DNA of 64,000 nt from Candidatus Marinacidobacterales bacterium. GTDB lineage: Bacteria > Acidobacteriota > Vicinamibacteria > Marinacidobacterales > DATDRI01. Location: assembly GCA_965219415.1 (NCBI GenBank), contig CBDCNP010000001.1:220251-284250 (forward strand), given 5' to 3'. This document shows positions 21,957 to 45,135 of the stretch, piece by piece. Both the position numbers and the translations under genes were made by a program. The notes under the pieces are model-generated. The model saw nothing but the letters and a program-made list of their open reading frames with translations. It made no database searches and was not told where the DNA came from. Positions within the stretch are counted from its first letter, which is position 1; each line of letters begins with the position of its first letter.

Positions 21957-23864
21957 TCAAAGGATCACGCGCTCGCTGCCCACTCTCCGCGTCACGTGCT
22001 CTCGGTCCAACCACTCCAAGAGTGGAATGGCGTGCTTTCGAGTGACGCCCGCCAGATCCTTGAAGAAGGCGACGTCGATCTTGGGCCTTTTTTCCTTCTG
22101 CTGCTGCACGGATTGCTTCAACTCTTCGAGGGCGTCGCGATGAAAAACCATGCCTTCGGCTACCTTGACCAGAGTCCCTTCTTGGGTGAGGAGGCGTGCG
22201 ATCCGCTGGAGAAGTTTCAGATCGCGGCGGTTCTTGGAAGCGATTTCCGCCAACGCGGGCGGTTGATAGCGGGCCTTGAGGAACGTATCTCCGAGGAACG
22301 ACCAAGCCTCCGCTTCCTCCGAAGACAGCTCGATACGATGGTCACTCGTTGCCACCCAATCCTTGACGGCTCGAAGCTTTCCGTTCTCGACCATACGACC
22401 GAGCGACCATTCGAAAACCTCCAAGCGTGCACGCGCCGTCGCCTTTTCTCGGAGCTCGCCCCGGGGCATTCCCTCACGCAACGGGTTGGCCTTCTGAAAC
22501 GACTTCAGCTCCATTAGTATTTGCGCCGAGATTTGCTCGGCCGTCTCCGGTGCTAGAAACAACAGCGGTTTTTCCGAGACCCGAAAGACTCGTTCGTTCG
22601 AAAGCAGAACTTCGACGAGCTTCGCCAGGGAGGCGTCGTCGATACCGAGTCGTCGCGCCAAAGCGGCACCATCGAGACCGCGCGGACCCGATGTGGCTAT
22701 GAACAGCGCGCACGCTTCGACTCGATCGCCCGACCGGAGCGCAGCGAGCCGCTCCACCACATCACGGCTAGTCACCGAGTGCTTCGGGGGGGATGGATCG
22801 AGGACTCGACCTCCTCCCAACGTCTCTAGAGGTGAGTAGCGTCGAATGATGAATCGATCCAAAGCGGCGGCGACCACCGGCGTCTCGAGACGAAATTGAA
22901 CGAGTGCGTGCGTCCCTGGAGCAACCGTGCCTTGGTTCCCTAAGACCCTGACCCGGGCCACGGCGACGGCGGTCCCGATGTGGAGATGCACCCTCGCCAG
23001 ATCTTTGACAGGGGTCGGAGACGATGCCAGGACCTCGAGCTCCGCATCCAGCATCAGACTGGGGAGCAGAGTACCGGGGCGCGCCAGAGTGTCTCCCCGC
23101 ACCACTTCGCTCATCTCGATGCCCTGCAGATTGACGGCAGTTCGTTGACCGGCGAGCGCGCGATCTTCGGCGGCACCGTGTACTTGCAACCCGCGCACGC
23201 GGGCCTTCGTACCACGGGGCAGAATTTCCACCTCCTCATCCACCGCGAGGCTGCCCGAGGTCAACGTGCCGGTAACGACTGCCCCGAAGCCCTTCATCGT
23301 GAAGACTCGATCCACCGGTAGACGAAAGAGACCGTCGGCCGGACGGCTGTCGACTCCGGCGGCGATATCGAACAAGACACGTTTCAGCTCATCGATGCCC
23401 GCACCGGTTTTCGAAGAGACGTAAATCGTTTGGGCTTCTTCGAGGAAGCTACCTTTGGCCAGCTCACTCATTTCCATGGCCGCGATCTCCCGGAGCTCCG
23501 GTTCAACCAAGTCCACCTTGGTAATCACCACCACGCCCTTTTTCACCCGAAGGAGACGGCAAATCTCGAAGTGCTCGCGAGTCTGAGGCATCACCGATTC
23601 GTCGGCCGCCACGACGAGCATCACCATGTCGATGCCGCCGGCACCCGCCAGCATGTTTTTTACGAAACGCTCATGCCCCGGAACATCGACGAACCCGAGG
23701 GTAATTCGTTCGGGGTCTGTTAAGAACGCGAACCCCAAGTCGACAGTGATTCCCCTCTCTTTTTCCTCCTTCAACCGGTCGGGGTCGGTGCCGGTGAGGG
23801 CGCGCACCAACGCACTCTTGCCGTGATCGATATGTCCTGCGGTACCCACGATGACATGTTTCAT
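21957..23864 (-). CDS. selB: Selenocysteine-specific elongation factor
   Basis: [29 protein letters not shown]; C-terminal winged helix ([13 protein letters not shown]). Confidence 0.97.
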
Positions 23865-23941
23865 GGCGTCTCCACGACATGATAGCCGACCGGCAAGGGC
23901 GGTTAAACCCTGTGCTATCATGGGATCACAAAGAGGTGTTC

Positions 23942-28152: not shown

Positions 28153-28238
28153 GCCGAAGTGGCGGAACGGCAGACGCGCTGCGTTCAGGGCGCAGTTCTC
28201 TTCGGGGAGTGGGGGTTCGAATCCCCCCTTCGGCACCA
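28153..28238 (+). tRNA. tRNA-Leu(CAG)
   Basis: GCCGAAG/CTTCGGC acceptor stem, CTGCG-TTCAGGG-CGCAG anticodon arm, long variable arm, GTTCGAA, encoded CCA. Confidence 0.97.
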
Positions 28239-28319
28239 AAAAATAGTCCCTCCATTCCAACCGTGTTCCTCGGTCCCTGCGGGAATAGCTGACAATCCTT
28301 CGATTGCCGCCAAAACCAC

Positions 28320-28351
28320 TTGACCCTGTACCTGGGTCAAAGGTTTACAAT
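28320..28351 (+). promoter_or_regulatory. MerR-type promoter/operator
   Basis: TTGACC-20 nt-TACAAT with dyad TTGACCC...GGGTCAA over the -35 and spacer. Confidence 0.8.
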
Positions 28352-28369
28352 GCGGGTAGGAGCAATCGA

Positions 28370-28787
28370 ATGGAAAACGACTCGTTTCTCATCGGCGAAC
28401 TAGCCCAGCGGGCCAACGTCAATCGCGAGACCTTCCGTTACTATGAACGGCGGGGACTCCTCAAACCGAGCCGCCGCACCCCCTCCGGCTACCGCGTCTA
28501 CCGTCCGGAAGCCGAAGAACGGCTAGGTTTCATCAGACGTGCCCAAGCTTTCGGATTCACACTCGATGAGATCTCAGTGCTACTCGGACTGCGGCCCGAC
28601 AATCCTCGGAGCTGTCGTCGCGTCTTGGGGATCCTCGACCAGAAAGTAGAAGAGCTCGCCCAACAAGATTACCGAAATGAAGCGCTTCCATCGGCAAATG
28701 TCCAGCTATCGCGACCATTGCGCTCAGACGATTGACAAGGGTTCGAGATGCCCGGTGATTGCAGACGTATCCAACGTGAAGATCTGA
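28370..28787 (+). CDS. Metal-responsive MerR-family regulator, frameshift near 28665
   Basis: IGELA..ETFRYYERRGLL, GFTLDEI, RSC; the shifted frame gives EMKRFHRQMSSYRDHC...RCPVI. Confidence 0.88.
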
Positions 28788-28796
28788 GGAGATATC

Positions 28797-29135
28797 ATGT
28801 CCAAGTGGACCGGTTTCGGAGCCGTTGGCGCAAGCCTCGGGGTAGCTCTGAGCTGGTTGTGCTGCCTCCCTTTCGCGGCTGCATTGGGGGCGGGAGTCGC
28901 GGCGGCAGGAGCCGCGCTCACACCACTTCAGCCCTTCATGGCTCTTGCCAGCGTTTCGCTGCTCGCCATTGCTTTCGTTCAAACACTAAGGGCGCGGGGG
29001 TGCGAGGATGGCGAGACCTGCAGCGCCCTATCGAAGCCGCGTCGTTGGCTCTTTCTAGCGGCAGTCACGGTAGCGACGATCCTCCTGATCACGGTGCCGT
29101 ACTGGAGCGCCCATCTCATTTACTGGACCCTGTGA
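28797..29135 (+). CDS. MerT-like heavy-metal transporter
   Basis: 3 TMs, LCCLP in TM1, cytoplasmic CEDGETC. Confidence 0.8.
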   Translation: MSKWTGFGAVGASLGVALSWLCCLPFAAALGAGVAAAGAALTPLQPFMALASVSLLAIAFVQTLRARGCEDGETCSALSKPRRWLFLAAVTVATILLITVPYWSAHLIYWTL

Positions 29136-29154
29136 CCGCCTGGAGGTGCACGCC

Positions 29155-29760
29155 ATGAATCGACGGATTCTAGTAGGAAGCTTAGCTGTGGCAACGCTCG
29201 CGGTTCTTTCTGGCGTCGCAGTTCTTCGGAGCTCAGGCGGCAAATCCAGTTGGAAGGAGCTCGGCTCCGTTAAAGAGCTTAGAGAGCAGTTCAACCAAGA
29301 CGAGGGTTCGATTCGGATCGTTCTGCTGTTGTCTCCGACGTGACCGGTTTGTGTCGCGGGGGCCCGGTGGGTCCAATCCAATATTCTCGAGGCTAATCCG
29401 GACGCCAACGTCAAGGTCTATGCGGTCTCCTTTCGCATGCTCGCGAGCGACCGCATCGCCAAATGGATGGTCGAGCCTGACAATCTTCTCTCGGATCCGC
29501 GCACCTTGCATTACTGGGACGAGGAAAAACTCGCTGGACGATACTACGAGGAGCGCGTGACTCAACTTGGCGATCCCGGCAACGGACGCATCGAATGGGA
29601 TGCCTATTTTCTCTATTGTCCCGATGCCACATGGGGAGAGGAACCACCGGAACACATCAGCTGGGGTCGAACCATCGTAGACTCCCGCGAACGGCTGCTC
29701 CGAGACTTCACCGCTCTGCTGCACTCCCCTGGAACGACCGAGACCCGTCGCCAAGAATGA
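29155..29760 (+). CDS. Putative selenoprotein, membrane-anchored thioredoxin-like (UxxC)
   Basis: GGAGG RBS; in-frame TGA 29341-29343 in LSPT-U-PVC; open frame continues 31 codons into ORF 29437-29760; downstream hairpin. Confidence 0.8.
29344..29375 (+). promoter_or_regulatory. Candidate bacterial SECIS element
   Basis: GGGCCC-GGT-GGGTCC hairpin with apical-loop G about 23 nt after the UGA. Confidence 0.6.
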
Positions 29761-29766
29761 AGCCTG

Positions 29767-30205
29767 ATGGATTGCTGTCAGCGTGAAGGCGAATCAGTCG
29801 ACCGCACCTGCCCTCGATGCGGCTCAGTGGGGGCGATCCGTCCAGCTGGTAACGGTCAACAGCCTTCTAACGGCTCGCGCCCTGGAAAGACTCACTGTGA
29901 AGGAGCACCGGTTCTGCGCGACGCCGGACTGCGAGGTCGTCTACTTCTCCGAAGTGACACTCTTTGGGCGCGAAGACGTTCGAGTACCCGTGTTTCAGAA
30001 GGAGCCGTCTGGCCGCCGGATGGTCTGCTACTGCTTCGAGGTTTCCGAGGATGACGCCGACGCCGCAGCGGAATCGCGTATCCGCACACACGTGCGGGCT
30101 GGGCGCTGCGCTTGCGAGTTGCGAAACCCGGAGGGTAGATGCTGTTTGGGCAACCTCTGGGCCGTTACCCGTACCACGGTAGGGGAGACCTCACAGAATG
30201 GTTGA
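29767..30205 (+). CDS. CopZ-N-terminal-like Zn/[2Fe-2S] metallochaperone, frameshift near 29830
   Basis: MDCC..CPRCG / FCATPDCEVVYF, VCYCF, CACELRNPEGRCCLGN. Confidence 0.82.
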
Positions 30206-30583
30206 GACCTGCTCGGCTTCCGACAACGATCTGGCTGGCCGCTGGTCGAGCTTGATCTCGATCTGGTGGCTCCCTGTAGCGGCGATGATCGCTGCGATGT
30301 TCGTAAACTCGCCGCTGCGAACCGCGACGTGGACAATTGCCCTGGGCTGGACGGGGGGGCCTGTCTCTTGAACGCATACCGCTGTGGTCGTGTGCACTGC
30401 TACTTCACTGGTCCGGCCTACATTCTTGGAGCCCTGACGTCTTTGCTCCACGGACTGGACGTCGTGTCGCTCGGGTCCCATGGCTGGGCGTGGATCGGCT
30501 ACACACTCATTGCCGGAAGCGTGCTCTTGAACTACGTTCCGGAGTGGGTCTGGGAAAGTGTGCCAATCTTAGTTGGGAATTGA
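30198..30583 (+). CDS. Cys/His-motif membrane protein, frameshift near 30350, 3' end probably cut by IS256
   Basis: MVETC..WWLPVAAM.. / GACLLNAYRCGRVHCYFTGP; 4 TMs. Confidence 0.7.
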
Positions 30584-31400
30584 AACGGCTCCAAACCCCG
30601 TGGTTTGATGGCGTTGGACAAAACAAAATCAAGCCGCGAAGAAAGGAGCCGAGATGGGAAGTCTGCTACGTTCGGTCAAGAAACGCAAGAAGTCGCGTCG
30701 TTTGGGTGAGGTCGAGATGGTGAGGCACGAGGATTACGGGGAACTCGCGCTGGACGCCAAGGTAGAGATGATCCGTTGGTTGGTCCCCCTTGGTCTAATG
30801 CACGTTCACGAGTTGCTCGACGACGAAGTGAAGGCGTTGGCGGGAGAGCGATACTCTCGCAAGGACGAGCTGGAGCGCGGTCGCCGTCCCGGAAGCAACC
30901 CGGGCACGGTAGGGCTTGGCGGCCAGCGGGTACCGATCCGTGTGCCACGGGTTCGGAGCATCGAGGGAGGAGAGATTCCGCTTCGCTGCTACGAGGCGGT
31001 GAGCCACGGCGGTGAGGTGAATGATCTTCTGCTGAAACGAGTTCTCTACGGAATCTCTTGTCGCAACTACGAGGCGGCAGCGGAAGCGATTCCGGGCGCC
31101 ATCGGGCTGTCGAGCTCAACGGTGTCCGTCGATGATCACCAGCAGACCCTGGGAGATATCGAGTCCCCGCTCGAGCAGTGAACGCAGGAACGGCGTCAAC
31201 ACCTGCGCGTTCTCCGTGTCCGTCTCCACGAAGCCCAAGAAGCGTTTTTCCCCGCAAAGCGTGATGCCCAGAGCCACGACCATCGTTGCCTCGGCGAATG
31301 TCTTCCCATCCAGAAACAGCGCCACCACATCCTCGCCGGTCAGATCCCGTTCCTGCATCTCCCGCAGCTTCGCAGCGCTCGCTTGCACGAACCCTCGGGA
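30554..31400 (+). mobile_element. Truncated IS256-family element with internal inversion
   Basis: 30654-31126(+) encodes ...GISCRNY..LSSSTVS; the continuation RGFVQAS..LFLDGK..VALGIT..VIIDG is on the minus strand (31397-31127). Confidence 0.85.

Positions 31401-44100: not shown

Positions 44101-45135
<1,035 letters not shown>

Follow-up and report, generated by a model that had tools for sequence, protein, structure and literature searches.

What does a TGA codon mean when it falls inside an otherwise open frame, directly behind a gene for a MerT-like transporter, and what could the protein be for if that codon is translated? The question is raised by gene X (the name also serves for its protein), which occupies positions 29155-29760 on the + strand of the window, the whole 64,000-nt stretch of Candidatus Marinacidobacterales DNA analyzed here. 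X runs from an ATG at 29155 to a terminal TGA at 29758-29760, 201 codons plus stop, and its sole internal interruption is a TGA at 29341-29343, codon 63. We regard it as close to certain that X is a real selenoprotein and that UGA-63 is decoded as selenocysteine (Sec). The translation around this codon reads ...IRIVLLLSPT-U-PVCVAGARW, where Sec opens a U-P-V-C motif that lies at the start of helix 1. The motif belongs to a thioredoxin-fold domain (about residues 32-193) preceded by a run of hydrophobic residues (5-24).

An earlier note on this DNA had proposed that two open reading frames (ORFs) form a single frame split by the TGA alone, and frame analysis bears this out. The first of them, 29146-29343, does lie in the frame of X, but it was begun at an upstream GTG. 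The ATG at 29155 is the likelier start, because a GGAGG ribosome-binding site read from the sequence (29141-29145, + strand) lies 9 nt before it and the closest relative has the same MNRRIL start.

Comparison with homologues provides the first line of evidence. A six-frame search of 401 genomes from the same phylum returned X-family matches in 68. From these, 85 loci holding 87 copies were scored with a hidden Markov model of alignment A2, leaving out four rows from genomes G024 and G152, two rows of G120:C10 and three short fragments. The codon in the Sec column is TGA in 64 copies (one of these rows, L035, comes from genome G049), TGC in 11, TGT in 9, TCC in 1 and ACG in 1; the remaining copy is a fragment without the column. 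Homologues thus have Cys or a conserved TGA at this site (64 TGA, 20 Cys and 2 other among 86), and their conservation extends to either side, as the earlier note had expected of a selenoprotein. Among GTDB species representatives, searched with alignment A1, the column is present in 21 of 24 loci, and all 21 have TGA. By their record titles, these 21 loci belong to Acidobacteriota, Ca. Binatia, Chloroflexota, Ca. Neomarinimicrobiota and Ca. Xenobia. One locus (L086, G336:C14:129622-131400) holds two tandem X-family copies, of which one has Cys (TGT) at the site and the other TGA.

Protein records show the same pattern. Alignments with homologues continue across the TGA, with conservation on both sides. 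A word-indexed search found 21 homologues. Four that are full-length or nearly so (P0014, P0015, P0016 and P0018) read LLLSPTCPVCV, with Cys at the Sec site. Several others start at MCVAGARW, immediately past the TGA. P0012 has W at the Sec site, which we attribute to TGA having been translated as Trp by the gene caller. Furthermore, Logan contigs from four runs of four studies span codon 63, and the TGA is unchanged in all of them; the assembly may itself derive from one of the four. The sequencing runs listed as holders include no RNA run.

The second line of evidence is a hairpin of the bacterial Sec insertion sequence (bSECIS) type at 29360-29374 (+ strand), composed of GGGCCC (29360-29365), a GGT loop (29366-29368) and GGGTCC (29369-29374). 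It has a G+C-rich stem of 6 bp, which begins 16 nt past the TGA, and a triloop with G as its first base, which begins at 22 nt. In the bSECISearch literature the spacing rule for bSECIS elements is 16-37 nt. The family was scored by a fixed criterion: a stem of at least 5 bp, a loop of 3-8 nt starting 15-23 nt past the codon, a G within the first two loop positions, and a folding free energy (dG) of -5 kcal/mol or lower. Such a hairpin is found in 63 of 64 TGA copies versus 1 of 20 Cys copies, and that single Cys copy adjoins a Sec copy in the tandem locus L086. The hairpin with an apical G that the earlier note described is present as stated. Dozens of homologues share the TGA column and the hairpin, and the observation is more than chance.

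The hairpin also covaries. It occurs in two registers among family members. In the commoner register (alignment A3, 49 sequences aligned without gaps, L035 left out), 94.1% of cells are paired, whereas shuffles give 79.3% and slid controls no more than 62.2%; in seven of eight pairs, both partners have changed. The covariation score (0.428 versus 0.161) was reached by none of 500 shuffles, a count that overstates the case because related sequences are not independent; the slid controls and the Sec/Cys contrast are unaffected by this. In the register of the window itself (alignment A4, n=8), all eight sequences are fully paired, and one pair, whose changes fall at synonymous third positions, appears as CG (5), GC (2) or UA (1). 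When the 52 nt that follow the codon are folded one sequence at a time, the energies are indistinguishable from those of shuffles (z -2.3 to +1.1), so the evidence for the hairpin is comparative. A scan of the window with Rfam at gathering thresholds returned only RNase P, ALIL and a tRNA, and no SECIS family.

The third line of evidence is the decoding machinery. The genome (8.05 Mb in 3 contigs, completeness 96.33, contamination 8.45) has a full set. The gene for the Sec-specific elongation factor, selB, lies within the window (21957-23921, - strand; TIGR00475, 375.8 bits against a cut-off of 242.25) at about 5.2 kb from X, in agreement with the 5 kb given earlier. Elsewhere in the genome are selA (569.7 bits), the tRNA-Sec gene selC (anticodon tca) and selD (328.3 bits, G000:C3:3889655-3890587). 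The selD gene has one in-frame TGA and, on that basis, is read as a selenoprotein gene itself. Taken together, these data show that, at the level of sequence, UGA-63 bears every signature of SelB-dependent Sec insertion: the hairpin, the Sec/Cys column, and selA, selB, selC and selD in one genome.

What kind of protein carries this residue? The N-terminus of X (MNRRILVGSLAVATLAVLSGVAVL) is hydrophobic, and a hydrophobic segment is found in 34 of 39 scorable family members (13 could not be scored), with a lipobox-like Cys in at least seven. The segment behind the previously proposed N-terminal transmembrane anchor is thus real, and X would be an exported or membrane-tethered protein of roughly 22 kDa. 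An AF2 model built with 52 sequences has a predicted local distance difference test (pLDDT) value of 86.7 and a predicted TM-score (pTM) of 0.81, with low confidence at residues 1-30. In the model, a strand at residues 53-59 is followed by a helix at 64-78 with U63 at its start, an arrangement that would place U63 at the position of the nucleophilic Cys of thioredoxins. The top Foldseek matches are DsbE/DsbF, ResA, GPx, Prx and Sco proteins (best E 7e-5, TM 0.35-0.59). VIA-align pairs the model with DsbE, ResA, the DipZ C-domain, CcmG, DsbF and Etrx at Z 11-13.5, with a root-mean-square deviation of 2.5-3.4 A over 120-136 residues and 8-17% identity. The confident model and both structure searches support what had been read from the sequence: the fold is thioredoxin-like, and Sec takes the place of the first Cys of CxxC. 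In the model, X is a protein of TlpA/ResA/DsbE-like thioredoxin fold with its Sec63-Pro-Val-Cys66 motif at the start of helix 1.

Profile searches place X less readily. A Pfam scan of X at E <=0.1 returned no family, including AhpC-TSA, Redoxin, Thioredoxin_8, PF00403, PF00255 and PF00578, and none matched three other single-domain family members. NCBIfam gave only a spurious 14.6-bit match to translation initiation factor IF-2 subunit beta. Profile matches to thioredoxins in the PDB are weak (E 0.021-1.4). The nearest Atlas clusters are named 'hypothetical protein' and have no Pfam family in common; TlpA and AhpC-like clusters come next, at 0.86-0.87. A conserved cis-Pro is typical of thiol-disulfide oxidoreductases. 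Among the family columns conserved at >=90%, P61 is the only Pro, so no conserved counterpart of that residue is apparent in X.

Gene order in relatives suggests what X works with. Ten of the 21 species-representative loci have a MerT-like gene directly upstream of X, seven have a MerR homologue and six a CopZ N-terminal-domain-like (CopZ-N-like) gene. A scan of 29 other first loci (±1.5 kb) found a MerR homologue in nine of them and, among the six closest, MerT by Pfam directly upstream in four (L017, L018, L019 and L022). MerA-like, MerB, CsoR-like, CDF and CopZ-N-like genes also occur near X in these 29 loci. For example, genome G385 has the order RicR-like, MerT, X(Sec), MerA (539.1 bits, cut-off 454.45), and G174 has MerT, X(Sec), CopZ_Nterm_CC. 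Cys forms are found in similar company: G149 has MerR, MerT-X(Cys), an orf and MerA (502.6 bits), G083 has MerT ... X(Cys), CopZ_Nterm_CC and a RicR-like gene, and G084 has X(Cys), MerT and MerB (195.6 bits, cut-off 193). A gene for a CsoR/RicR-type repressor is present in two related loci. In G354, X lies in a large mer cluster with MerTP, MerC and a GDCCVxC (seleno)protein. The last of these is a 549-aa protein encoded between merC and X (L056 7208-8857), whose C-terminal GDCCVxC (seleno)protein domain matches NF041374 at 94.1 bits.

Moreover, X is naturally fused to metal-handling domains. In G149 and G271 it shares one ORF with MerT, as MerT-X (343 aa, L050 6610-7641) and MerT-HMA-X (398 aa, L052 6799-7995), both with Cys at the Sec position. 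The X domain is also fused to HMA in P0028 and P0073, both above the Pfam cut-off, and in P0093 by a weak match below it (E 0.0068). Other proteins join the X domain to YceI domains. The N-terminal membrane domains of P0038, P0039 and P0060 look CcdA/DsbD-like, but this is a visual impression, and they have no Pfam match even at E <=5. Conserved gene order and natural MerT fusions tie X to a MerT-like importer more strongly than the earlier note, which had proposed this pairing, could see.

In the window itself, X sits in a five-gene module. It begins 19 nt past the stop of the MerT-like gene, and 6 nt separate its end from the next ATG. A tRNA-Leu(CAG) gene (28153-28238, + strand) lies directly upstream of the module, and two fragments of a Mutator/IS256-family transposase in opposite orientation (30654-31388; PF00872, E 0.0083 and 5.7e-7) lie directly downstream. 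The five genes between may be a small acquired islet. The first gene encodes a MerR-family regulator (28304-28735, + strand). Its in-frame part matches MerR models only to about position 90-95, and the Cys-bearing C-terminus is found in another frame at 28650-28787 (KITEMKRFHRQMSSYRDHC...CPVIADV). A frameshift near 28665 is likely, because the orthologue in L111 reads through in one frame; a BLASTP comparison of the 45-aa out-of-frame piece with two MerR homologues found nothing. The second gene (28797-29135, + strand) encodes the MerT-like three-helix transporter, whose helix 1 has a CC pair and whose loop has C-x5-C; C22, C23 and C69 are invariant in six sequences. Its matches to PF02411 (E 1.9e-4, 21.9 bits, cut-off 32.9) and NF033556 (E 2e-9) both fall below cut-off. 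By Pfam and NCBIfam, the MerR and MerT-like neighbors agree with those named earlier, the MerT match being weak.

Downstream of X, the CopZ-N-like gene (29767-30205, + strand) encodes a putative Fe-S/Zn metallochaperone with CC...CPxCG that matches NF047645 at 109.6 bits (cut-off 100). The match covers only model positions 19-137, and the N-terminus lies in another frame. A frameshift splits the gene at a run of five G (29829-29833), where sequencing runs X1 and X2 agree with the window and runs X7 and X10 have one G fewer. The fifth gene (30198-30583, + strand) encodes a small membrane protein with a RCGRVHCYFTGP motif and is also found in L120 and L124. It is possibly frameshifted at a run of seven G (30353-30359); its homologue aligns over residues 53-113, from 30353 onward only. 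In the closest relative, L111, a Vicinamibacteria metagenome-assembled genome by its title that is 82% identical, MerR, MerT, X (with TGA) and CopZ-N are intact. Runs X7 and X10, from two studies, have a 99-nt in-frame deletion within X (29402-29500), which takes out about residues 83-116 including a core strand, and their contigs have single-nucleotide polymorphisms at 29598 and 29617. Farther away, the window holds an RNase P RNA (749-1121, 300.9 bits) and an ALIL pseudoknot (44429-44545, 87 bits), presumably an IS3-type frameshift element.

What might the Sec residue be for? Judging from gene order and fusions, X is probably a periplasmic Sec/Cys site that works with MerT, and the role we favor is that it captures soft metals and hands them to MerT in the manner of MerP. 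We likewise consider it fairly likely that X is a functional partner of MerT in soft-metal handling. The Sec/Cys pair would face the periplasm, where Sec63 and Cys66 could chelate Hg(II), or some other thiophilic ion, between selenolate and thiolate. Ligand exchange would then move the ion to the CC pair of MerT helix 1, and X would do the job that MerP does in classical mer operons. In the window organism, metal might then continue to the cytosolic CopZ-N-like protein rather than to MerA. Capture and hand-off are favored on four grounds: in G385 the gene stands where merP would, fusion to MerT has its parallel in MerTP, the domain is also fused to HMA, and no conserved candidate for the cis-Pro of oxidoreductases is seen. 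That X binds metal directly, as opposed to serving in redox upkeep, is a closer call, which we put a little short of even. A more general proposal is offered tentatively and with somewhat less confidence again: the family may use selenium to capture Hg(II) and other soft metals in the periplasm and supply them to MerT-type importers, replacing or augmenting MerP.

Several observations weigh against a metal-capture role. Solved structures nearest to X are reductases, not metal carriers. The same 401 genomes contain 64 PF02411 matches to MerT in 57 genomes, of which 11 lie within 5 kb of an X-family member. With 11 such matches near roughly 100 family matches, most family members sampled from the phylum have no adjacent MerT match, and the link to MerT is thus the property of a subfamily. 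The MerT-HMA-X fusion already holds a MerP-like domain, so X is not simply a substitute for MerP. The MerT-like gene of the window falls below the Pfam cut-off that its orthologues reach. No MerA above cut-off was found in the genome of the window organism (best 377.6 against 454.45), making Hg detoxification unlikely there. Finally, the MerR-like and CopZ-N-like genes are frameshifted in this strain, the fifth gene possibly so, and X itself is shortened in two runs. Together the frameshifts and the deletion suggest possible decay of the module in this species. The cause could instead lie in assembly errors at homopolymers, as two of the frameshift sites are homopolymers and the platforms of the runs are not on record.

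The main alternative is that X is a redox helper: a periplasmic thiol-disulfide reductase of the TlpA/ResA/CcmG type that keeps the cysteines of MerT and MerP-like domains reduced in an oxidizing periplasm. We consider this less likely. The extracytoplasmic reductases DsbE, ResA, CcmG, the DipZ C-domain, DsbF and Etrx are the closest solved structures, UxxC stands at the canonical nucleophile position, and a reductase would fit both MerT-HMA-X, where a MerP-like metal site exists besides X, and the members far from MerT that adjoin thioredoxin or AhpC-like genes (L025, L031 and L037). Against it, apart from P61 there is no conserved Pro to act as the cis-Pro such enzymes typically have, X lacks a match to AhpC-TSA, Redoxin or Thioredoxin_8 at E <=0.1, and no gene for an electron donor (DsbD/CcdA) is shown adjoining X. 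X might instead be a general enzyme for detoxifying peroxides or other oxidants, similar to Prx or GPx, with its metal-gene neighborhood incidental. GPx4/5/7/8, Prx and Bcp do appear among the Foldseek and VIA-align matches, and the AhpC/TSA clusters of the Atlas lie at 0.86-0.87. This reading is nevertheless very improbable: the merT gene order recurs, MerT fusions exist, X matches neither PF00255 nor PF00578, and its motif, UxxC, differs from the forms that Table 1 of PMC13188914 gives for GPx and Prx selenoproteins, UxxT and TxxU.

The remaining possibility concerns decoding rather than function. If the TGA were a true stop, X would be two small genes or a pseudogene. Gene callers do split homologues at this codon, into pieces of 113-145 aa and 62 aa, and neighboring genes of this strain carry frameshifts. 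We find the proposal barely credible, because TGA occupies a single column in 64 of 86 aligned copies with Cys codons in 20, sequence is conserved on both sides of it, the hairpin covaries and follows the TGA forms with only 1 of 20 Cys forms having it, and the genome encodes the full Sec machinery.

How widespread is the family, and why has it been overlooked? An exhaustive search found 971 clusters (50% identity) that match X at E <=0.001, 328 of them at E <=1e-10. Among 150 matches listed, many begin only within query residues 65-76, and two others reach no further than residue 62; such ends are expected of proteins split at the TGA. Public sets accordingly hold many C-terminal pieces of 113-145 aa and N-terminal pieces of 62 aa, and NCBI names family members 'hypothetical protein'. 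Hundreds of public 'hypothetical proteins' (60 or 115-145 residues) would thus be halves of one gene. The earlier suspicion that standard annotation misses X was well founded: every gene caller stops at UGA, and what remains are shortened 'hypothetical proteins'.

The family also appears to be new. A 2026 inventory lists 119 prokaryotic selenoprotein families, each with a domain identifier (PMC13188914, Table 1). None of the Pfam, NCBIfam or TIGR identifiers in that table matches X, in a comparison that excludes families defined only by CDD or PANTHER (cd02966, cd02970, cd10141, cd01144 and PTHR43551), of which cd02966 is the only plausible overlap. No description of the family was found in full-text literature searches or in passages of the Haft preprint (10.1101/2022.07.06.499078) and of PMC13188914, a scope that leaves subscription papers and supplements outside. 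We rate X as a new family among thioredoxin-fold UxxC selenoproteins, set apart from the others by Pfam, NCBIfam and TIGR models and with a possible overlap at cd02966, and we rate its place as a component of mer-type operons as a new role.

If these readings are correct, the consequences extend beyond one locus. X would represent an undescribed and widespread selenoprotein family and add a new part to mer transport as textbooks describe it. In canonical mer operons (merT/merA/merB) it would be the first component that is a selenoprotein. MerP would be replaced or augmented in Acidobacteriota, Binatia, Chloroflexota, Neomarinimicrobiota and others, and selenium use in the environment would be tied to the handling of mercury and other soft metals by soil and sediment bacteria. 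In addition, since Sec forms, Cys forms and MerT fusions of the family all occur in nature, it lends itself to a clean test of how Sec compares with Cys at a metal or redox site.

Comparison with known systems brings out what is distinctive about X. Thioredoxin-fold UxxC selenoproteins in the inventory include Trx, Grx, Prx-like, thiol:disulfide interchange and DsbA/DsbG-like proteins, the Redoxin family, a 'thiol-disulfide isomerase-like' family (cd02966), SaoT and a HUIPC-motif protein (PMC13188914). X resembles them in its active-site UxxC, the Sec/Cys pair among homologues and the downstream bSECIS, whereas the Pfam, NCBIfam and TIGR models listed for them in PMC13188914 do not match it. 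With TlpA, ResA, CcmG, DsbE and DsbF, X shares the fold, a membrane-tethered or lipoprotein N-terminus and the placing of the redox motif where helix 1 begins. It differs from them in being only 8-17% identical, in matching neither their Pfam models nor any NCBIfam model, in mostly using Sec for the first Cys, in showing no evident conserved cis-Pro candidate, and in residing in mer-type operons instead of cytochrome-maturation loci.

Sco1/SenC proteins are copper chaperones, membrane-anchored thioredoxin folds that hold metal at CxxxC, and BsSco and an SCO1/SenC lipoprotein are among the Foldseek matches to X (1xzo, 4hde). X departs from them in its UxxC spacing, in having no His in near-invariant columns and in its genomic context. 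The functional parallel proposed here is MerP/MerTP, MerP being the periplasmic Hg(II) carrier of mer operons, from which X differs in structure: its fold is thioredoxin-like and not the ferredoxin-like HMA fold with GMxCxxC, it has no PF00403 match, it uses Sec, it is about 170 residues long compared with about 70 for MerP, and in one fusion it stands beside an HMA domain. On the other hand, X has two soft ligands spaced x-x and a probable extracytoplasmic location, its C-terminal fusions to MerT parallel MerTP, and it directly follows merT, in G385 between merT and merA.

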